In this document: positions 2,199-28,325 of the stretch, one piece after another | How positions within the stretch are numbered: the first letter of the stretch is position 1 | How the letters are laid out: the number at the start of each line of letters is the position of its first letter | Assembly: GCF_054482525.1 (NCBI RefSeq) | Contig: NZ_CM137006.1 | Direction: 5' to 3' (one strand) | Length of the DNA: 64,000 bases | The notes under the pieces: model-generated | Database searches by the model: none | Told to the model about the DNA's origin: nothing | Seen by the model: only the letters and a program-made list of their open reading frames with translations | Program-made: the position numbers and the translations under genes

Positions 2199-2990
2199 TT
2201 ACATCGCGTTAAGACGTTTTTGTGCCTGTTTAGCGCCATCAGTACCAGGGTATTTACTGATAACCTGCTGGTATACGGCTTTCGCTTTTGCGGTGTCACC
2301 TTTGTCCTGCATGATGACACCGACTTTAAACATCGCATCTGCAGCCTTTGGCGACTTCGGATAGTTTTTTACTACCGAAGCAAAATAGTACGCCGCATCA
2401 TCTTTTTTACCCTTGTTGTAGTTTAACTGACCCAGCCAATAATTGGCGTTTGGCAGGTAAGTTGAATCAGGGTAATTTTTGATGAAATTCTGAAATGCCA
2501 CCATTGCGTCATCCTGGCGGGATTTATCCTGCACCAGCGCAATTGCTGCATTGTAATCCGTGTTTGCATCGCCGCTTTTCACCGGCGCGCCAGCATTCGC
2601 AGTACCAGCATCAGCTGTCGGCGTCGTTGATGCCGCCGCACCGCTTTGATCACCGCTGGTTGATTGCGCCGCTGCACCACCGCTGCTGAGGCTGTCGATC
2701 TGCAACAGGATCTGCTTTTGCCGCTCCACGACCTGATTCAGTTGATACTGATTTTCCTGAATCTGACCGCGCAGGGAATCAATATCGGATTGATTATCAG
2801 AGAGTTGTTGCTGGAGTTGGGTTAAAAGCTGGCTGTGAGCATTTGAAATACGCTCAAGTTGAGTGACGCGGTCTTCGACCGAGCCTGAGCCGACACTACT
2901 GATTGGTGCCTGAGCAAAAGCGGCCCAGGGGGCCGCTATACCAACCAGTAACGACAGACTCAATAGTTGATGTCTGAAGTTACTGCTCAT
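2199..2990 (-). CDS. cpoB: Cell division coordinator CpoB (YbgF), TPR protein
   Basis: 263-aa ORF MSSNFRHQLLSLSLLVGIAAPWAAFA... with signal peptide, Gln-rich coiled coil and C-terminal TPR region; synteny after pal. Confidence 0.9.
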   Translation of the reverse strand: MSSNFRHQLLSLSLLVGIAAPWAAFAQAPISSVGSGSVEDRVTQLERISNAHSQLLTQLQQQLSDNQSDIDSLRGQIQENQYQLNQVVERQKQILLQIDSLSSGGAAAQSTSGDQSGAAASTTPTADAGTANAGAPVKSGDANTDYNAAIALVQDKSRQDDAMVAFQNFIKNYPDSTYLPNANYWLGQLNYNKGKKDDAAYYFASVVKNYPKSPKAADAMFKVGVIMQDKGDTAKAKAVYQQVISKYPGTDGAKQAQKRLNAM

Positions 2991-2999
2991 GCAATTCTC

Positions 3000-3545
<546 letters not shown>

Positions 3546-3555
3546 TTAATTATTA

Positions 3556-4848
3556 TCACAGATACGGCGACCAGGCAGGGAATTTGACCTGTCCATCAGT
3601 TGCCGGAAGACGCGCTTTGAAACGCCCATCTGTAGAAACCAAATTCAGCACGGATCCCATCCCCTGAGAAGAGCTGTAGATTACCATAGTGCCGTTAGGT
3701 GCCAGACTTGGCGTTTCATCCAGGAACGTGGACGACAGAACTTGTACGCCTCCCGTTGCCAGATCTTGTTTGGCAATGTGCTGCTGCCCACCATTGGAGC
3801 TGACCATTACCATAAATTTACCGTCGCTGCTGACATCCGCATCCTGGTTCTGCGAACCTTCCCAGGTAATACGTTGTGGCGCACCGCCGTTGATATTCAC
3901 TTTATAAACCTGTGGACGACCGGCCTGGTCAGAAGTAAATGCCAGGTTCTGGCTGTCCGGGAACCAGGTCGGTTCGGTATTGTTACTGCGACCATCCGTC
4001 ACCTGGCGGATCTGACCAGAAGCCAAATCCATTACGTACAGGTTCAGACTACCGGTTTTCGACAAGGCGAATGCCAGTTTGCTGCCGTCTGGCGAGAATG
4101 CAGGTGCACCGTTGTGACGCGGGAATGAAGCCACCTGACGTACAGCGCCATTTGCCAGCGTTTGGATGACCAGCGCGGAACGACCGCTTTCGAAGGTCAC
4201 ATAAGCCAGTTTAGAACCGTCTGGTGACCACGCCGGAGACATCAGCGGCTGCGGTGAACGGTGAACGACAAACTGGTTGTAACCGTCATAGTCAGATACG
4301 CGCAGTTCATACGGGAACTGACCGCCGTTGGTCTGAACAACGTAGGCAATACGGGTACGGAACGCACCTTTAATGCCGGTCAGTTTTTCAAACACTTCAT
4401 CACTGGCGGTATGACCAGCATAACGCAGCCACTGCTTGTTCACTTTGTACGAGTTCTGAGCAAGTACAGTACCCGGTGCGCCGCCAGTGTCAACAAGTTG
4501 ATAAGCAACATTGTAAGAACCATCCGGATTCGGAGTGACCTGACCGACAACTACAGCGTCAATGCCCAGTGCGGACCATGCAGCTGGTTGTACTTCCTGC
4601 GCACTACCCGGCTGCTGTGGCAGACGAGCGCGATCTAACGGATTAAATTTACCGCTGTTACGCAAGTCAGCAGCAACGATGCCGCCAATATCTTCAGGTG
4701 CCGCACCAGGACCCGCCCACTGGAAAGGAACAACTCCAATAGGACGACCGGAATCTACACCGCTGTCGATCACAATGCGGACTTCAGCATGCAGAACTGA
4801 TGCCCACAGTATGAGAAAACCAAATGCTACTCGTAATGCCTGCTTCAT
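3556..4848 (-). CDS. tolB: Tol-Pal system periplasmic beta-propeller protein TolB
   Basis: 430-aa product [21 protein letters not shown]...; start taken as second Met of the ORF. Confidence 0.92.
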
Positions 4849-4980
4849 CATATCTCCCTTATCTGGACCGATGGCCCACGATAATTTAGCAGAATGTTAA
4901 CAAACTAAAATACACAAAACTACCAGAACCCCGTGGCAACCGGTGCCTGATGTTGACCGTCGGAACAGTCAACATCGCGA

Positions 4981-6246
4981 TTACGGTTTGAAGTCCAATG
5001 GCGCGTTTTTGAACACTTCATATACTGCCTGGCTTGGTGGTTTCGGGATCTTCGCAAGTTTAGCTGCTGCCAACGCAGCCTGACAAAGTGCGGGATCGCC
5101 ACCTTCAGGTTTGATATCCAGTAACATACCATCGGGTGCCAGTTTTATGCGCAGCGTACAGGTTTTGCCTGCATAGGACGATGCGTCATAGAACTTACTT
5201 TCGATAGCAGATTTAATCTGCCCGGCATAGTTATTGATATCGGCCCCTGATGCGCCATTGTTTTTAGTATTACCACTCCCGGCTGGCGAAGCATTGTTCC
5301 CTTTCGCCCCTCCCCCCGTTTTCGGTGCATTCTTACCAGAGCTTAGCTCACCGAAAATATCATCTGCCTCTGCGGCAGCTTTTGCTGCAGCGGCTTTTTC
5401 AGCTGCTGCTTTTGCCGCTGCCGCTTTTTTGTCTGCGGCGGCTTTTTCTGCCGCTGCTTTCTTATCAGCTGCTGCCTTTTCAGCAGCCGCTTTTTCTGCT
5501 GCTTTTTTGTCGGCTGCAGCTTTCTCTGCTGCCGCTTTCTTATCAGCTGCAGCCTTTTCAGCAGCCGCTTTCTTCTCAGCTTCTGCTTTGGCTTTTTCAG
5601 CAGCTTCAGTTGCCGCTTTCTTTCTTGCTTCAGCTGCAGCTGCTTCTGCCGCTTCCGCTTTCTTCTTCAGTGCCGCCGCGGCTGCCTCGGCTTTTTTCTG
5701 CGCTTCGGCTGCGGCTTTGGCGGCTTCTGCTTCTGCTTTTTTCTTCGCGTCTGCAGCCGCTTTCTTCGCAGCTTCTTCCGCAGCTTTAGCATCCGCTTCG
5801 GCCTTCGCTTTAGCATCTGCCGCCGCTTTCGCTGCCGCTTCTTCCGCTTGCTTCTGCTTTAACTCGGCCTGTTTTGCGGCTTCTTCAGCCTGCTTTTTCT
5901 GTTCCTGAGCAGCTAACCGCTCTTTCTCAAGTTGCTTCAGGCGTTCCTGTTCAGCCGCTTGTTTCTCACGCAGTTCTTCAGCGGCCTGCTGTTCCTTCAT
6001 CTTGCGCTGCTCATCAGAACGCTTCGCGCTTGATTCCTGGCTTTGCATGCGTTTGTACTGCTCAACTACCGCACCTGAATCAACCATGACAGCGTCGATG
6101 GATGAACCACCGCCGCCTCCGGCTGAAGCTTCTATATTCTCATCGAACGAACTCCAGATCAGCGCCGCAAATAAGATGACATGCAGCACTGCTGAAATAA
6201 TTATCGCCCGCTTGAGCTTGTCGTTTTGTTCGGTTGCCTTTGACAC
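4981..6246 (-). CDS. tolA: Tol-Pal system protein TolA
   Basis: 421 aa, N-terminal TM segment, long Ala/Lys/Glu-rich helical domain II, C-terminal domain III. Confidence 0.92.
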   Translation of the reverse strand: MSKATEQNDKLKRAIIISAVLHVILFAALIWSSFDENIEASAGGGGGSSIDAVMVDSGAVVEQYKRMQSQESSAKRSDEQRKMKEQQAAEELREKQAAEQERLKQLEKERLAAQEQKKQAEEAAKQAELKQKQAEEAAAKAAADAKAKAEADAKAAEEAAKKAAADAKKKAEAEAAKAAAEAQKKAEAAAAALKKKAEAAEAAAAEARKKAATEAAEKAKAEAEKKAAAEKAAADKKAAAEKAAADKKAAEKAAAEKAAADKKAAAEKAAADKKAAAAKAAAEKAAAAKAAAEADDIFGELSSGKNAPKTGGGAKGNNASPAGSGNTKNNGASGADINNYAGQIKSAIESKFYDASSYAGKTCTLRIKLAPDGMLLDIKPEGGDPALCQAALAAAKLAKIPKPPSQAVYEVFKNAPLDFKP

Positions 6247-6310
6247 TCTCGGTTTCCAAAAACTGTTCGCCTGTTACCCGCTCTCTTTCAAGCAAGGGAA
6301 ACGCAGATGT

Positions 6311-6739
6311 TTAGATAGGCTGCGTCATTAAACCAACCGATTTCACACCCGCACTATGTAACAAGTTCAGTGCTTTAATTATTTCATCGTAAGGCACATC
6401 TTTTGCGCCACCGATCAGAAAGACCGTTTTCGGGTTGGCCTTGAAACGGCTGGACACTTCCGCCACCACCTGCTCTGGTGGTAAACGCTCCAGGCGATCT
6501 TTATCAACCACCACGGTGTACTGACCAATACCAGACACTTCAACAATCACTGGCGGATTATCGTTACTGCTCACCGCCTGTGATTCAGTAGCGTCTGGCA
6601 GATCGACCTCCACGCTCTGGGTGATGATGGGCGCTGTCGCCATAAAGATCAGCAACAGCACCAGCAGTACGTCCAGCAACGGTACAATGTTGATTTCGGA
6701 CTTGAGATCGCGACGACCTCGTCCACGCGCTCTGGCCAT
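6311..6739 (-). CDS. tolR: Tol-Pal system protein TolR
   Basis: 142 aa MARARGRGRRDLKSEINIVPLLDVLLVLLLIF..., ExbD/TolR family. Confidence 0.92.
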   Translation of the reverse strand: MARARGRGRRDLKSEINIVPLLDVLLVLLLIFMATAPIITQSVEVDLPDATESQAVSSNDNPPVIVEVSGIGQYTVVVDKDRLERLPPEQVVAEVSSRFKANPKTVFLIGGAKDVPYDEIIKALNLLHSAGVKSVGLMTQPI

Positions 6740-6742
6740 GGC

Positions 6743-7836
<1,094 letters not shown>

Positions 7837-7932
7837 TTTACATCCCGGTAATGCAACAAAAGTTAGAGCTTTTAAACGCTGCTACTATACGCGCGCGATT
7901 GAGGTTTGGGAATGAGGGCAAGTTAAGGGAGC

Positions 7933-7962
7933 GTAAAAATTTATGGGCCTGGAGCGGCCCAT
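7933..7962 (-). terminator. Terminator-like hairpin (ATGGGCC-loop-GGCCCAT with flanking T/A runs) after ybgE
   Basis: GC stem followed by T-run on the minus strand between ybgE and ybgC. Confidence 0.45.
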
Positions 7963-7985
7963 AATTTTTTAAAGAGAATTCTGAT

Positions 7986-8279
7986 TTAAAAGAAGAAGAA
8001 AATCAGCCCGACAATGAGAACAATATCGGCAAGCAATGGGCAAAAAATCCCTTGCCAAAGAACCTTCTGCGGACGAAAGCCCACGCCGTGAATCACACCA
8101 GCACAGACGGCCCACATCAGCAATAAACCATGCCAGATTTCCAGTTCACTGGTCTTCGCGGCGAAACGTGATGGGTCCCAAAACATACATCCTGCTAACA
8201 GAAGCGCCATCACGAAGGAAAGCGCCCGCAGGGGGCGCTTGTCCATTACCGCATACAAGGTTGCGATAATCTTACTCAT
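7986..8279 (-). CDS. ybgE: Cyd operon small membrane protein YbgE
   Basis: 97 aa hydrophobic ORF MSKIIATLYAVMDKRPLRALSFVMALLLAGCMFW...; synteny after cydX. Confidence 0.85.
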   Translation of the reverse strand: MSKIIATLYAVMDKRPLRALSFVMALLLAGCMFWDPSRFAAKTSELEIWHGLLLMWAVCAGVIHGVGFRPQKVLWQGIFCPLLADIVLIVGLIFFFF

Positions 8280-8392
8280 CAGATGTCTTCTTGACCGGCT
8301 TTGCCTGATTCGACGTGCTCAAGCGCCAGCGCGGTGATTACCCCAAACGAACAGGCAAGAAGCGTTCCCAGAATCCATGCGAAATACCACAT
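8279..8392 (-). CDS. cydX: Cytochrome bd-I accessory subunit CydX (YbgT), 37 aa
   Basis: Reverse translation from ATG at 8390-8392 gives MWYFAWILGTLLACSFGVITALALEHVESGKAGQEDI; stop TGA overlaps ybgE ATG by 1 nt. Too short for the ORF track. Confidence 0.85.
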   Translation of the reverse strand: MWYFAWILGTLLACSFGVITALALEHVESGKAGQEDI

Positions 8393-8406
8393 TTTTAGCT
8401 CCTTAC

Positions 8407-9546
8407 TTAGTACAGAGAGTGGGTGTTACGTTCAATATCTTCTTTGGTGATACGACCGAACATTTTCCAGTAACACCAGGCGGTGTAGAGCAGAATGATC
8501 GGTACCAGAACCACCGCAACCCAGGTCATGACGTTAAGCGTCAGCTGGCTGGATGTTGCATCCCACATTGTCAGACTTGCGTTCATCATGGTGCTGGACG
8601 GCATCACAAACGGGAACATTGCGATACCGGCAGTCAGGATGATGCAGGCCAGCGTCAGGGAGGAGAACACAAACGCCCACGCGGCTTTATCCATACGTGC
8701 AGTCAGGATGGTCAGCAGCGGCAGAACCACACCCAGTGCCGGAATAGCCCACAGAATTGGCGTGTTGTTGAAGTTAACCAGCCATGCGCCAGCTTCACGA
8801 ACCACTTCTTTATTCAGCGGGTTAGAGGCTGCGTAATGGTCCATTGTCGATTTCACGACATAACCATCGATACCGTACATCACCCATACGCCAGCCAGTG
8901 CGAAACAGACCAGTGTCACCAGTGCCGCCACCTGAGCCGTTGCACGGGTACGCAGGTGCAGTTCGCCCACGGTACGCATTTGCAGGTAAGTCGCGCCCTG
9001 AGTAATGATCATCCCTACGCTCACCACGCCAGCCAGCAGGCCGAACGGGTTAAGCAGCTGGAAGAAGTTACCGGTGTAGTACAGACGCAGATATTCATCA
9101 ACGTTGAACGGTACGCCCTGCAACAGGTTACCGAACGCCACACCAATCACCAGCGGCGGAACGAAGCTACCAATGAAGATGCCCCAGTCCCACATGTTAC
9201 GCCAGCGGGTTTCTTCAATCTTGGAGCGGTAGTCAAAACCGACCGGACGGAAGAACAAAGATGCCAGCACGAGGATCATCGCCACATAGAAGCCGGAGAA
9301 CGCAGCGGCATAGACCATCGGCCAGGCAGCAAAGAGTGCGCCGCCCGCGGTGATCAGCCAAACCTGGTTACCGTCCCAGTGTGGTGCAATGGAGTTAATC
9401 ATAATTCGACGCTCGGTGTCGTTACGACCGAGGAAACGGGTGAGCATGCCCACCCCCATGTCGAAACCGTCAGTGACTGCAAAACCAATCAGCAGAACGC
9501 CAACCAGCAGCCACCAGATAAAACGCAATACTTCATAATCGATCAT
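8407..9546 (-). CDS. cydB: Cytochrome bd-I ubiquinol oxidase subunit II
   Basis: 379 aa MIDYEVLRFIWWLLVGVLLIGFAVTDGFDMG... polytopic membrane protein. Confidence 0.93.
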   Translation of the reverse strand: MIDYEVLRFIWWLLVGVLLIGFAVTDGFDMGVGMLTRFLGRNDTERRIMINSIAPHWDGNQVWLITAGGALFAAWPMVYAAAFSGFYVAMILVLASLFFRPVGFDYRSKIEETRWRNMWDWGIFIGSFVPPLVIGVAFGNLLQGVPFNVDEYLRLYYTGNFFQLLNPFGLLAGVVSVGMIITQGATYLQMRTVGELHLRTRATAQVAALVTLVCFALAGVWVMYGIDGYVVKSTMDHYAASNPLNKEVVREAGAWLVNFNNTPILWAIPALGVVLPLLTILTARMDKAAWAFVFSSLTLACIILTAGIAMFPFVMPSSTMMNASLTMWDATSSQLTLNVMTWVAVVLVPIILLYTAWCYWKMFGRITKEDIERNTHSLY

Positions 9547-9561
9547 TTGACGACTCCTGTC

Positions 9562-11130
9562 TTAGCGTGCCGGCTGAGTAGTCGTGGAAGACTGCTCAAA
9601 GTGATAGCGACCGGTTTTCAGGCTGCTTGGGCCGAGGCGTGCAAACTTGAACATTAAGAACAATTCTGCCACCAGGAACAGGGTATACAGGCCGCAAATC
9701 AGCACCATTGAGAAGATGAGATCGCCTGCGGTCAGTGACGAGTTCGCCACAGCTGTCGGCAGCACTTCACCGATAGCCCACGGTTGGCGGCCATATTCAG
9801 CCACGAACCAGCCCGCTTCTACAGCAATCCACGGCAGCGGAATACCGTACAGCGCGGCGCGCAGCAGCCATTTTTTCTCGCCAATGCGGTTGCGGATGAC
9901 ACTCCAGAAAGAGAGCGCGATGATTGCCAGCAGCAGGAAGCCACACGCCACCATGATACGGAACGCGAAGTACAGCGGCGCTACACGCGGAATGGAGTCT
10001 TTGGTTGCCTGTTGAATCTGCGCTTCAGTCGCATCAGCCACGTTTGGCGTATAGCGTTTCAGCAGCAGACCGTAACCGAGGTCTTTCTTCATGCTATTGA
10101 ACTGGTCACGAACCGCCTGGTCGGTAGAACCAGAACGCAGTTGCTCGAGCAGAGAGTACGCCTTCATCCCGTTACGAATGCGTTCTTCATGCTGCACCAT
10201 CAGTTCTTTCAGGCCGATAACTGGAGTATCCACGGAACGCGTTGCAATGATGCCCAGCGCGTAAGGGATCTGGATCGCAAATTTGTTCGTCTCCTCTTCC
10301 TGATCAGGAATGCCGAACAGAGTAAAGGCAGCAGGCGCAGGTTGCGTTTCCCACTCGGCTTCAATAGCAGCCAGTTTGGTTTTCTGCACGTCGCCCATTT
10401 CGTAACCAGATTCATCACCCAGAACAATAACAGACAGAACGGCAGCCATACCGAAGCTGGCAGCGATAGCAAAGGAGCGTTTAGCGAAGGCGAAGTCACG
10501 ACCTTTCAGCATATACCATGCGCTGATACCGAGGATGAACATCGCGCCAGTCACATAACCAGACGCTACAGTGTGAACGAATTTCACCTGAGCAACCGGG
10601 TTAAGCACCAGCTCGGAGAAGCTCACCATCTCCATACGCATAGTTTCAAAGTTGAAATCGGACGCGATTGGGTTTTGCATCCAGCCGTTCGCAACCAGAA
10701 TCCACAGTGCGGACAGGTTTGAACCGAGCGCCACCAGCCAGGTGACACACATATGCTGAACTTTACCCAGACGATCCCAACCGAAGAAGAACAGACCTAC
10801 AAAGGTGGATTCGAGGAAGAAGGCCATCAGACCTTCGATTGCCAGCGGCGCACCGAAGATATCCCCTACATAGTGGGAATAGTAAGACCAGTTAGTCCCG
10901 AACTGGAACTCCATGGTCAGACCGGTTGCCACACCCAGAGCGAAGTTGATACCAAACAACTTGCCCCAGAACTTGGTCATATCTTTATAAATCTGTTTGC
11001 CGGAAAGGACGTAGACCGTTTCCATAATGGCCAGCAGGAACGCCATACCGAGCGTCAGTGGCACAAAAAGGAAGTGGTACATCGCGGTCAAGGCAAACTG
11101 TAAGCGCGACAGTTCGACTATATCTAACAT
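9562..11130 (-). CDS. cydA: Cytochrome bd-I ubiquinol oxidase subunit I
   Basis: 522 aa from [28 protein letters not shown]...; start set at the second Met of the ORF. Confidence 0.93.
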
Positions 11131-11467
11131 CATGACTCCTTGCTCATCGCATGAAGACTCCGAGAGTGAACCCCGTTAGAAAGGGTCACACGCATGCCCC
11201 AATACAAAATTATTTGCTCGCCTCTATCGTTGCCATTTCATCAAAAGAGGAAAAGACAATGATAAAAAAGTTACAAATATGTTAATGAATAAACCAAATT
11301 GATCCCGTAATTATATTACGCCGCAAAATCCTTACAATAAACAGGTTTTTATTGAGCAAATTTGCATTTTTCGACAGTGATCAATTTATAGCGAAATTGT
11401 CACGATCTCACCAATTTGATCTACGACAATTTATCGTGTTTTGCAGATTTTTTTCAAGAATTAAAAA

Positions 11468-11481
11468 TTGATTTATATCAA
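11468..11481. promoter_or_regulatory. FNR consensus box TTGAT-TTAT-ATCAA in the cydA upstream region
   Basis: Perfect match to TTGAT-N4-ATCAA about 340 bp upstream of cydA; cydAB is known to be FNR/ArcA regulated. Confidence 0.5.
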
Positions 11482-23974: not shown

Positions 23975-23981
23975 TAAATAT

Positions 23982-24005
23982 CCTCCGGCATAGCCGGAGG
24001 TTTTT
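23982..24005 (+). terminator. Rho-independent terminator of the glutamate-catabolism operon
   Basis: CCTCCGGC-ATA-GCCGGAGG followed by TTTTT immediately after the adenosyltransferase stop. Confidence 0.7.
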
Positions 24006-24712
24006 CAAATGCGCCTATAAGGCTCTCTTACCAGCCGCGCCCTAACAGGCGCACACGATCTGACATTTGCATCCAACTTCGTTACTTACGGCCCGTAAAC
24101 GGGCTGCCCGGATAGGGAATCGATAACTGCTCTCCCATTTTATCCTCTTCAAGCTGGTGCTTTATGTAATCCTGTATCTTCGCCGTGTTCTTACCCACCG
24201 TATCGACGTAGTACCCTCTGCACCAGAACTCCCTGTTCCTGTATTTGAATTTCAAATCACCAAACTGCTCGTAAAGCATCAGACTGCTTTTCCCTTTCAG
24301 ATATCCCATAAAGCCGGATACGCTCATTTTGGGCGGGATCTCCACAAGCATATGGATATGATCTGCACAGCATTCAGCTTCCAGAATCCGTACACTTTTC
24401 CACTCACACAGCTTTCTCAAAATACTGCCTATTGCTCTACGCTTCTCTCTGTAGAACACCTGTCTTCGGTATTTTGGCGCAAAAACTATGTGATATTTAC
24501 AGTTCCATCGGGTGTGCGCTAAGCTCTTTTCGTTCCCCATTGGGACCCCCTTTTGATTTCTTGTTTGACACTTGCAGTTGCCAGACCGCAAGGTGTTTTA
24601 ACAAATCAAAAGGGGTTTTAATAACTGGCTTAAAGCTGAAAGCTTTCCGGAACCCCCAGCCTAGCTGGGGGTTTTCTGTGCACAATAACTGCGCCTGGCA
24701 TCCCGCCAGGCG
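24006..24712 (-). mobile_element. IS200-like element (IS200/IS605 family), boundaries approximate
   Basis: Contains a Y1-transposase gene, a perfect palindrome AACCCCCAGCCTAGCTGGGGGTT about 120 bp upstream of tnpA and a 13-bp inverted repeat sequestering the tnpA start region, as in IS200. Confidence 0.6.
24082..24540 (-). CDS. tnpA: IS200 transposase TnpA (HUH Y1 transposase)
   Basis: 152 aa MGNEKSLAHTRWNCKYHIVFAPKYRRQVFY...HIHMLVEIPPK... with HuH motif and catalytic Tyr-containing C-terminus. Confidence 0.9.
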   Translation of the reverse strand: MGNEKSLAHTRWNCKYHIVFAPKYRRQVFYREKRRAIGSILRKLCEWKSVRILEAECCADHIHMLVEIPPKMSVSGFMGYLKGKSSLMLYEQFGDLKFKYRNREFWCRGYYVDTVGKNTAKIQDYIKHQLEEDKMGEQLSIPYPGSPFTGRK

Positions 24713-24718
24713 CAGGTT

Positions 24719-25624
24719 TTACATCTCCTGCGGTACAACCGATTTCGCCAGCAACCATTCACGAAATTGCTGCAAGTGCGGTGAGTCAGACTTCTCTTCC
24801 TGCCACGTCATAATAAAACGATTACCGGTACGAATAGGCACATCACAGGGAATCACCATATCGCCACTATCCAAATCATGTTGAATAGCGAACCGTGGTA
24901 ACAGCGCCACGCCGAGATTAGAGCGCACGGCGGCAATCAGCATTGAAAGCAAATCGAAACGTGGTCCGTTGTTGACCAGCGGACTGCTAACGCCAGATAA
25001 GGCAAACCACTCTTCCCAGCCAGTAATACGGGTACTTTGATGCAGAAGTGGTAACTCTGTAAGCAGTTCTGCCACTGACAGTTTTTGATCGGACATTGCA
25101 AGCAAACTGCCGCTGCATACCGGCAAAATCTCCTCTTCAAAGAGATATTCTACTTCCGCCCAGGGCGCGCAAAAATTTTCGCGCATAATGACAGCATCGT
25201 ACTCCCGATTAAGAAAATCGCCGTTATTAGCTAAAGAGTGAATATTAACAATAATATCGGGATGTAACTTTGTGAATTCATGTAAATTTGGGATTAACCA
25301 GTGGGTACTAAACGTAGGATTCACGGCAAGTTCAATAACCTTAACTGTAGGTTGCCAGGTCATAATGGTATTGGTATCGCGTTCCAGCTTATTTAATGTT
25401 TCTTTTACTATCCCCAGGTAATACTTCCCTGCATCATTAAGAAAAATACGTTTTTTAGAGTGTGAAAATAACGGAGTATGTAAAAATTCCTCCAGCGCAC
25501 TCACTTGTCTGAATACTGCACTTTGGGTTAACGCTAACTCCTCTGCCGCTCTGGTATAACTTTCATGACGTGCGACGACCTCAAAAGTCACCAGCAGTTC
25601 CGTTTTAGGTATTTTTCCTCGCAT
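24719..25624 (-). CDS. LysR-family transcriptional regulator
   Basis: 301 aa; N-terminal HTH (TFEVVARHESYTRAAEELALTQSAVFRQVSALEE) and LysR substrate-binding domain. Confidence 0.85.
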   Translation of the reverse strand: MRGKIPKTELLVTFEVVARHESYTRAAEELALTQSAVFRQVSALEEFLHTPLFSHSKKRIFLNDAGKYYLGIVKETLNKLERDTNTIMTWQPTVKVIELAVNPTFSTHWLIPNLHEFTKLHPDIIVNIHSLANNGDFLNREYDAVIMRENFCAPWAEVEYLFEEEILPVCSGSLLAMSDQKLSVAELLTELPLLHQSTRITGWEEWFALSGVSSPLVNNGPRFDLLSMLIAAVRSNLGVALLPRFAIQHDLDSGDMVIPCDVPIRTGNRFIMTWQEEKSDSPHLQQFREWLLAKSVVPQEM

Positions 25625-26190
25625 AATGCCGTCCCTTAAAAATAGTTTAAACCATCAAAAATACATTACTTATTACGAAGTAATGGTAACCAAAGCAGCA
25701 ATAAATAATTTATAAGAATCATGATTGACATTTATAACCCAGTAAGCCTGGCGTGACAAATATCTTAATCAGATAATAATAATCCGAAAAGCACAGCGCC
25801 TTTCGAATTATCCGGAATCACATTAAGTGAAAATTATTAAATTGATATCATTTATCATATCTGTGGATATTATGATAAACAATCAACAAAGATTTTATTT
25901 TTGATTTATAGCATATCCCTCTAAGAATTTTTGCGATGCTGCAATATCCGGGGTAAAGACCCGATCCTGGCTGACAAATGGCACGACTTGACGATAAGCG
26001 GTGAACATCGCTTTTGTTGATTTACTTAACGCTACGGTCAAACGCTGGGAAGCCAGTGCATCAGGTAACGATTCGAAATTCGCCGTCGTTCTTATTCGTG
26101 GCTTGCGGTCGGTTGCGGCAATCCACAGTGGCTGTGGTCATGCAGTCAAGCCAGCGGTCAGATTTCGACCGTGGTTAACATTTAAGGCAT

Positions 26191-26289
26191 AAAAAAGGCC
26201 ATCATACGATGGCCAACCATGTCGAAACCGACAGCCCTTCGCCATTCCTGTAGAGGGAAGCGGCGAGGGCTATTTCTTATTACAGATAT
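26191..26289 (-). ncRNA. sdhX: sucD 3'UTR-derived sRNA SdhX (RybD) with intrinsic terminator
   Basis: About 100 nt between sucD stop and hairpin GGCCATCGTATGATGGCC + U6 on the minus strand; position matches the known SdhX locus. Sequence identity not checked. Confidence 0.5.
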
Positions 26290-27159
26290 TTATTTCAGAA
26301 CAGTTTTCAGTGCTTCACCGATATCCGCCAGGCTGCGAACGGTTTTCACGCCTGCGGCTTCCAGAGCAGCGAATTTCTCATCCGCAGTCCCTTTCCCACC
26401 GGCAATGATGGCACCCGCGTGGCCCATACGTTTGCCTTTCGGCGCAGTCACACCAGCGATGTAACCCACAACAGGCTTGGTAACGTGCTCTTTGATGTAC
26501 GCAGCCGCTTCTTCTTCAGCGCTACCGCCGATCTCACCGATCATCACGATCGCTTCGGTCTGCGGATCTTTTTCGAACATTTCGAGGATGTCGATAAAGT
26601 TAGAGCCAGGGATCGGGTCGCCGCCGATACCAACACAGGTCGACTGACCGAAACCGTAATCCGTGGTCTGTTTAACCGCTTCATAGGTCAGTGTACCGGA
26701 ACGGGAAACGATACCCACTTTACCCGGTTTGTGAATGTGACCAGGCTGGATACCGATTTTGCATTCACCCGGAGTGATAACGCCTGGGCAGTTCGGGCCG
26801 ATCATGCGAACGCCCGCTTCATCCAGTTTCACCTTCACGGTCAGCATATCCAGCGTCGGGATGCCTTCAGTGATGGTGATAATCAGTTTGATGCCTGCAT
26901 CAATAGCTTCCAGAATGGAGTCTTTGCAGAACGGTGCTGGTACGTAGATAACAGAAGCGGTAGCGCCAGTAGCAGCAACAGCTTCACGCACGGTGTTGAA
27001 CACCGGCAGGCCGAGGTGGGTGGTGCCGCCTTTACCTGGGGTTACGCCGCCAACCATTTTAGTGCCGTATGCAATGGCCTGTTCTGAGTGGAAAGTCCCC
27101 TGGCTACCGGTAAAGCCCTGGCAGATAACCTTGGTGTTTTTATCAATTAAAATGGACAT
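26290..27159 (-). CDS. sucD: Succinyl-CoA synthetase alpha subunit
   Basis: 289 aa [45 protein letters not shown]... Confidence 0.95.
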
Positions 27160-28325
27160 TATTTCCCCTCCACTGCGGCAACAACCTGCTGAGCTGCATC
27201 CGTCAGACCTTTTGCTGCAATAATATTCAGGCCGCTGTCAGCCAGTTTCTTCGCGCCGAGTTCGGCGTTGTTACCTTCCAGACGTACCACGACCGGTACG
27301 TTAACACCCACTTCCGCTACCGCGCCGATGATACCGTCAGCGATCAGGTCGCAACGAACGATACCGCCGAAGATGTTAACCAGAACGGCTTTCACTTTGT
27401 CGTCAGAGAGGATGATTTTGAACGCTTCGGTTACACGTTCTTTGGTTGCGCCGCCGCCAACGTCAAGGAAGTTAGCTGGTTCGCCGCCGTGCAGTTTAAC
27501 GATGTCCATCGTACCCATCGCCAGACCTGCGCCGTTAACCATACAACCGATGTTACCGTCCAGCGCAACGTAGTTCAGTTCCCACTGTGCAGCCTGTGCT
27601 TCACGTGGATCTTCCTGCGACTGGTCACGCATTTCGCGCAGATCAGGCTGGCGGAACAGTGCGTTGCCATCAGCGCCCAGTTTGCCGTCGAGGCAAATCA
27701 GATCGCCCTGTTTGGTGATGACCAGTGGGTTGATTTCGATCAGCGCCAGGTCGCGCTCCAGGAAAATGGTCGCCAGGCCCATGAAGATTTTGGTGAACTG
27801 CTGAACCAGTTTACCTTCCAGACCCAGTTTGAACGCCAGCTCGCGTCCCTGATACGGCATCGGGCCAGTCAGCGGATCAAGCGCAACTTTATGGATCAGG
27901 TGCGGAGTTTCTTCCGCCACTTTTTCGATTTCCACGCCGCCTTCGGTGGAGGCCATAAAGACCACACGACGGGAACTACGGTCAACAACGGCACCGAGAT
28001 ACAGCTCTTTAGCGATATCGGTCGCTGCTTCAACCAGAATCTGGTTAACCGGTTGGCCATTGGCATCTGTTTGATACGTTACCAGACGCTTGCCCAGCCA
28101 GTTTTCTGCAAAAGCACGGATGTCTTCTTTGCTGTTTACCACTTTCACACCGCCCGCTTTACCGCGGCCACCAGCGTGAACCTGACATTTCACTACCCAC
28201 GGACCGGCACCGATTTTTGAAGCGGCTTCTTCTGCTTCGCGCGGAGTAGTACAGGCATAACCCACCGGTGCTGGTAAGCCATAGCGGGCAAAAAGTTGTT
28301 TTGCCTGATATTCATGTAAGTTCAT
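27159..28325 (-). CDS. sucC: Succinyl-CoA synthetase beta subunit
   Basis: 388 aa [39 protein letters not shown]...; 1-nt overlap with sucD. Confidence 0.95.

Follow-up and report, generated by a model that had tools for sequence, protein, structure and literature searches.

A non-coding segment beside sucD in Escherichia coli is probably a composite deletion scar of hut and rtcB genes

Introduction

Between the gene for a LysR-family regulator and sucD, a stretch of Escherichia coli DNA (64,000 nucleotides of contig NZ_CM137006.1, assembly GCF_054482525.1; hereafter the window) includes a segment in which no convincing gene is recognised. A first-pass annotation, made from the sequence alone, placed this segment at 25921-26190 and considered that it may be a deletion scar at the site of K-12 mngR, the right-hand junction of an island, or the source of a small RNA. 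What is this segment, and which genes, if any, did it once belong to? Our analysis indicates, with a probability of about 0.93, that positions 25895-26192 of the window are a composite pseudogene, a non-functional deletion scar of hut and rtcB genes.

Results

The segment and its limits

In the window, sucD occupies 26290-27159 (minus strand), with sucC, sucB (annotated as odhB), sucA and sdhCDAB upstream of it. To the left of the segment lie the LysR-family regulator gene (24719-25624, minus strand), an IS200 copy, cobO, a class I fumarase gene and methylaspartate/glutamate-mutase genes. The IS200 copy (23978-24683; tnpA ORF 24082-24591, minus strand) has inserted into the 33 bp that separate cobO from the 3' end of the LysR gene. 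Strain N3 does not carry this copy and is otherwise ~99% identical to the window across the island.

The natural limits of the segment are 25895-26192 rather than 25921-26190. The latter interval starts 26 bp within a hutH remnant described below, and the right end of the segment is set by an rtcB stop codon (26190-26192) that overlaps the T-tract of the sdhX terminator. Within these limits both the ORF listing and the PGAP annotation agree with the earlier view that there is no intact gene, and RefSeq/PGAP annotates no feature here in most genomes with identical sequence. The ORF 26001-26192 had been described as the only one listed; there are in fact four short ORFs, none of them convincing. 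They are given here together with the intergenic region to their left:

26001-26192, plus strand: short ORF, 63 aa, GTG start
26014-26178, plus strand: short ORF, 54 aa
25895-26041, minus strand: short ORF, 48 aa, TTG start
26138-26245, minus strand: short ORF, 35 aa
25625-25894, no strand: AT-rich intergenic region from the LysR start codon (25624, minus strand) to the hutH stop, 29% GC

The GC content is 0.50 in 25921-26190 and 0.29 in the adjacent LysR upstream region, 25625-25894. With 50% GC against 29% in the neighbouring intergenic DNA the segment is compositionally gene-like, which suggests that it may be former coding DNA. The AT-rich region, which presumably holds the LysR promoter, lies outside the scar and is collinear and ungapped with positions 8734-9003 of the corresponding locus (L003) of strain EC17GD31 (NZ_CP031293.1), at 85-93% identity.

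Remnants of hutH and rtcB

A blastn search with 25890-26182 over 28 Gb of sequence matched 25892-26088, in two pieces, to a gene for a HAL/PAL/TAL family ammonia-lyase (~87% identity, E = 1e-38) and 26092-26148 to a gene for an RtcB family protein (93% identity, E = 9e-14). By megablast, 26151-26295 matches the rtcB-sucD junction of strain TCM3e1 (NZ_CP066806.1). Local blastn and blastx resolve the segment into four collinear fragments of two genes, encoding a hutH-like HAL and RtcB; the blastx E-values below refer to a two-sequence database of the HAL and RtcB proteins alone.

25895-26032, minus strand: hutH-like remnant A, HAL aa 511-556 plus the stop codon (25895-25897), the last 45 codons; blastx 89% identity, E = 9e-26; blastn match to the EC17GD31 locus, 9004-9141
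26027-26088, minus strand: hutH-like remnant B, HAL aa 378-397, in the same frame as remnant A; blastx 90%, E = 1e-7; blastn 87% to the EC17GD31 locus, 9484-9545
26092-26148, plus strand: rtcB remnant C, internal, RtcB aa 376-394; blastx E = 5e-12; blastn 93%
26149-26192, plus strand: rtcB remnant D, last codons, ~aa 451-465, PAVRFRPWLTFKA, plus the stop codon 26190-26192; blastx E = 1e-6

Remnant B was placed by its blast coordinates, as the MAFFT alignment misplaced this hutH fragment. We judge the similarity to hutH and rtcB to be far beyond chance. Clear identity to an intact gene, which the first-pass annotation had named as evidence against its reading, thus exists in a modified form: the segment consists of pieces of two genes, both of which other strains carry intact.

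The intact HAL reference protein belongs to PF00221 (E = 2e-123) and the intact RtcB reference to PF01139 (E = 7e-95); the fragments alone, too short to score, have no Pfam match. The hutH-like remnant is homologous to a PF00221 family member at the syntenic position and lacks a full ORF that includes the catalytic N-terminal and central domain. With 65 of 556 codons left and no Pfam match, it would be a pseudogene remnant and no functional member of the family. The rtcB remnant is likewise homologous to a PF01139 family member at the syntenic position and has no complete in-frame ORF; ~34 of 465 codons are left, and pieces C and D are in different frames because of a 173-bp deletion.

Both genes are part of a module that is intact in some strains. 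TCM3e1 and EC17GD31 have the order LysR (minus), HAL (minus), hutG, hutI, hutD/Ves, a permease gene and hutU (all minus), RtcB (plus) and sucD (minus), and strain RM14723 (NZ_CP027103.1) shares this gene set and has, in addition, mngB-mngA-mngR between rtcB and sucD. The transporter of the intact module is of the 'cytosine permease' family. Its HAL (EC17GD31 locus, 9004-10674, minus strand; 556 aa) has a hydrophobic, signal-peptide-like N-terminus, MKGLIRRVTVTVVLWSVCSIAMAKS... Histidine ammonia-lyase is a cytoplasmic enzyme, and a signal-peptide-like N-terminus would be unusual for it.

Junctions and deletions

All four junctions were read base by base against intact references. Compared with the intact-module strains, the window has lost 9.6 kb in three deletions (348, 9,082 and 173 bp). 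The junctions, and the terminator that follows them, are:

26027-26032: J1, TAACGC microhomology at the 348-bp (116-codon, in-frame) internal hutH deletion; both reference flanks read TAA(T/C)GC and the blast HSPs overlap at 26027-26032
26089-26091: J2, TTC, three bases that are either filler or of ambiguous origin, where the main deletion (9,082 bp) closed (flank comparison)
26148/26149: J3, 173-bp rtcB deletion, which shifts the frame (flank comparison with strain DCE7, locus L004)
26183-26188: J4, rtcB end TTTAAGG joined to CATAAAAAAGG, which in mngR-bearing strains stands right behind the mngR stop codon; TAAG microhomology (comparison with RM14723)
26189-26214, minus strand: intrinsic terminator of the sucD 3'UTR/sdhX, stem 26197-26214, T-tract 26189-26196 (terminator scan; 98% identity to K-12 downstream of sucD)

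The terminator downstream of sucD, which has no match to an Rfam model, we take to be that of sdhX, as is established. According to the annotation of TCM3e1 and EC17GD31, the 9,082-bp deletion, whose size was computed from coordinates 2688-11769 of the TCM3e1 locus (L005), took the 5' 1,129 nt of hutH, hutG, hutI, hutD, the permease gene, hutU, the hutU-rtcB spacer and rtcB nt 1-1125.

RM14723 holds both ...GTTTAAGGGGTAA (the rtcB end) and ...GATAAGCATAAAAAAGG (the mngR end). We read J4 as the scar of an older, 5.6-kb loss of mngB-mngA-mngR; since EC17GD31 has exactly the J4 sequence of the window, the mng loss preceded the loss of hut and rtcB. The true island/backbone junction is J4, 6 bp at 26183-26188. 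The segment as a whole had been proposed as the right-hand junction of the island; the scar instead lies inside the island and results from the loss of hut and rtcB, with the junction restricted to those 6 bp.

The following history would account for the present arrangement. In an ancestor, the interval between the LysR gene of the methylaspartate island and sucD would have held a hut module on the minus strand (hutH-like HAL, hutG, hutI, hutD, permease, hutU), an rtcB-family gene on the plus strand, and then mngB-mngA-mngR. A 5.6-kb deletion would have dropped mngB-mngA-mngR, bringing the stop region of rtcB up against the sdhX/sucD terminator. Deletions of 9,082, 348 and 173 bp would have followed, leaving two pieces of the 3' half of hutH and two pieces of the 3' end of rtcB. 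The microhomology at the junctions, 0-6 bp, points to illegitimate recombination or replication slippage and not to site-specific or IS-mediated excision. Intermediates that carry just one or two of these later deletions were not seen. Homology, collinearity, junction sequences, the distribution among genomes and the broken reading frames are direct observations; we infer the order of the three later deletions, their mechanism and the lack of function of what they left.

Divergence from the intact allele

Over the glm genes and LysR the window and EC17GD31 are 98-99% identical. The identity falls abruptly to 85-87% right at the start codon of LysR, and it stays low through the scar (window 25625-26032 compared with 8734-9141 of the EC17GD31 locus). 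We regard this drop as a haplotype boundary. Eighteen of the 27 differences between the hutH fragments and the intact allele are at third codon positions (P = 4e-4), and the codon changes are synonymous in 17 cases and non-synonymous in 6. The third-position bias indicates that the hutH sequence once evolved as coding DNA. Together with the synonymous bias it suggests that most of the divergence arose under purifying selection, so that the scar would derive from a distinct, divergent haplotype and not from heavy decay after the deletions. Strain XH992 is mosaic, with the intact-type haplotype on the left (~window 25631-25762) and the scar type to the right of the intergenic region; as it combines two haplotypes, it appears to be a recombinant.

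Neither the complete E. coli genomes nor one GTDB scan yielded an intact hutH allele with more than ~87% identity to the scar fragments, and the direct pre-deletion ancestor was not observed. The sole match in an exact-pattern scan of GTDB species representatives, a 'Citrobacter sp.' MAG (DXKH01000067.1), was set aside, its LysR-hutH being of the E. coli intact type and not of the scar type. In this human-gut MAG, binned as Citrobacter, the LysR-hutH 3' region (67-2913) is nearly identical to the intact allele of E. coli, and reflects either a recent transfer or a mis-binned Escherichia contig.

A more far-reaching interpretation is that the scar has no descent from the hut-rtcB alleles present intact in E. 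coli today but is the relic of a second, ~13% divergent and once-functional hut-rtcB module of another lineage or species, spread by recombination as the mosaic XH992 would suggest, and further that its fragments are perhaps kept beside the sdhX terminator and the LysR promoter for a residual role in cis, such as insulating LysR from sdh-suc read-through. We consider this combination unlikely.

Distribution and variation among E. coli genomes

Counting genomes in which at least 80% of the query was covered in one place, we found the scar in 832-835 of the 5,426 complete E. coli genomes; O157:H7 and O55:H7 are among the carriers. An intact hut-rtcB module was counted in 144 of the 5,426 (~3%), and other genomes, roughly 158, carry rtcB-only forms. 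Strain DCE7 (L004, 7002-9274) has a different, independent deletion that extends from glmE to upstream of rtcB. Its locus consists of a truncated glmE pseudogene, ~390 bp, an intact rtcB and then mngB-mngA(pseudogene)-mngR-sucD.

Five scar alleles (the window, PK8261, O157 180-PT54, XH992 and 33E), taken from diverse strains, have every junction in common, so each deletion probably occurred once. Across the five, 12 of 269 columns are variable in the scar, 4 of 290 in sucD and 1 of 100 in the sdhX region. O157 180-PT54 and 33E have a 1-nt insertion (TTAACCG vs TTAACA) in the rtcB tail remnant, at window 26178-26182, and SNPs are clustered near this indel (8 variable columns in 52).

Alternative explanations

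The position of the segment raises the question of mngR, which is the neighbour of sucD in K-12 and whose stop-codon region aligns from 26183 onward. We nevertheless rejected, as deserving almost no credence, the explanation that the segment is a remnant of mngR itself that marks the K-12 mngR site, since neither DNA nor protein similarity to mngR is found left of 26183. In tblastn searches K-12 MngR gave noise against 25600-26300 (best E = 0.43) and no match at E <= 1e-3 in the whole 64-kb window. The comparison with K-12 mngR and sucD-mngR DNA proposed in the first-pass annotation gave no support either: in a megablast of 25625-26295 against the 5,426 complete genomes of E. coli, the match to genomes of K-12 type begins only at ~26183-26191, at the mngR stop codon. 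The blastn search with 25890-26182 matched 1,134 genomes, and among the matches listed all are carriers of HAL, RtcB or the scar, with no K-12-type genome. All 298 bp are accounted for by the HAL and RtcB fragments, and at most ~10 bp after the junction come from the mngR end. It had also been supposed that mngR would begin here, but in K-12 this gene is convergent with sucD, so that its 3' end (the stop codon) would abut the sdhX terminator. What was right in the earlier idea is that the segment is a non-coding deletion scar; its attribution to mngR was not.

Two further explanations would give the segment a product of its own. That it is a small regulatory RNA gene, either independent or with a product made by read-through or processing downstream of sdhX, might be thought of because it adjoins a known locus of a 3'UTR-derived sRNA, 15% of E. 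coli genomes retain its sequence and there is a weak terminator-like hairpin at 25996-26013 (plus strand). This option, raised by the earlier annotation, nonetheless appears highly improbable in view of Rfam, folding, the promoter and terminator scans and the variability. No Rfam 15 covariance model matches in 25895-26192 at E <= 1; across 24000-28000 the only Rfam matches are to STnc490 in the IS200 copy at 24550-24712, one strong (24550-24673, 146 bits) and one weak, below the gathering score. The MFE z-scores against shuffled sequence are -0.23 (plus) and -0.34 (minus). Two promoter-like sites compare with 2.0 expected, neither of them inside the segment, and two terminator-like sites with 0.9 expected, one of them being the sdhX terminator. 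SNP and indel density is above that of the flanking sucD, and the sequence is fully explained as debris of coding genes. A small protein, be it the 63-aa ORF 26001-26192 (plus) or the 84-aa WP_001309348.1 (minus), is scarcely credible. PGAP does call an 84-aa CDS in PK8261 (L007, 406-660) and LR-58-2, at the equivalent of 25895-26149 (minus), yet most RefSeq genomes have no annotation here, and neither an intact ORF nor a conserved frame was found for WP_001309348.1 across the carriers. In the window a TGA at 26138-26140 interrupts its frame, and what remains is a 48-aa ORF with a TTG start; one SNP in PK8261 relative to the window removes this TGA and opens the 84-aa frame. The product would be a chimera of antisense rtcB and two hutH fragments. 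Similarly, the 63-aa ORF is made up of an rtcB fragment read out of frame and of hutH sequence in antisense, and it is broken by the 1-nt indel in O157 and 33E. None of the scar ORFs has a Pfam match. The 84-aa 'hypothetical protein' is likely a spurious call, and we infer no function for the scar.

Discussion

The composite scar of hutH and rtcB is an ordinary, previously unannotated gene-decay scar inside a known accessory island, and is not biologically surprising. It implies no new mechanism or biology, and its use is in annotation and in tracing how the locus evolved. An unannotated stretch for which hutH and rtcB pseudogene fragments would be the proper label is found here in about 15% of complete E. 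coli genomes, and a few carry a spurious 84-aa 'hypothetical protein' on the scar. The interval between cydA and sucD is a hotspot of deletion variants. For this cydAB-sucD variable locus our results outline a stepwise reductive history, from the full form through mng loss to the loss of hut and rtcB. K-12 has no hut genes; ~3% of E. coli have them intact, and a larger group has lost them. A literature search gave nothing specific on the hut/rtcB scar or on the sdhX-mngR junction.

The intact module of TCM3e1, EC17GD31 and RM14723 has the same chromosomal place, order and orientation as the remnants in the window. The 3' ends of hutH and rtcB, the two terminal genes, survive in the window, whose junction of rtcB with the sdhX terminator is identical to that of TCM3e1 and EC17GD31. 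The retained fragments, in contrast, are only 87-93% identical to the intact module, compared with 98-99% for the adjacent LysR and glm genes.

Compared with the sucD-sdhX-mngR junction of K-12, the window has the sdhX/sucD terminator and sucD at 98% identity, and the bases directly after the mngR stop codon survive from 26188. In contrast, mngR, mngA and mngB are absent from the window, and the DNA left of 26183 is island DNA.

A glutamate-fermentation (methylaspartate pathway) cluster with FumD, CobA and an LTTR has been described for E. coli O157:H7 (Kronen and Berg 2015, PMC4682846). A term search of that paper gave no mention of histidine, sucD or mng genes, and the hut/rtcB remnants and the sucD junction are apparently undescribed there. 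The window has this cluster directly to the left of the scar (glmS/L/E, methylaspartate ammonia-lyase, a transporter, class I fumarase, cobO and LysR), and O157:H7, the source of the described cluster, has the same scar as the window.
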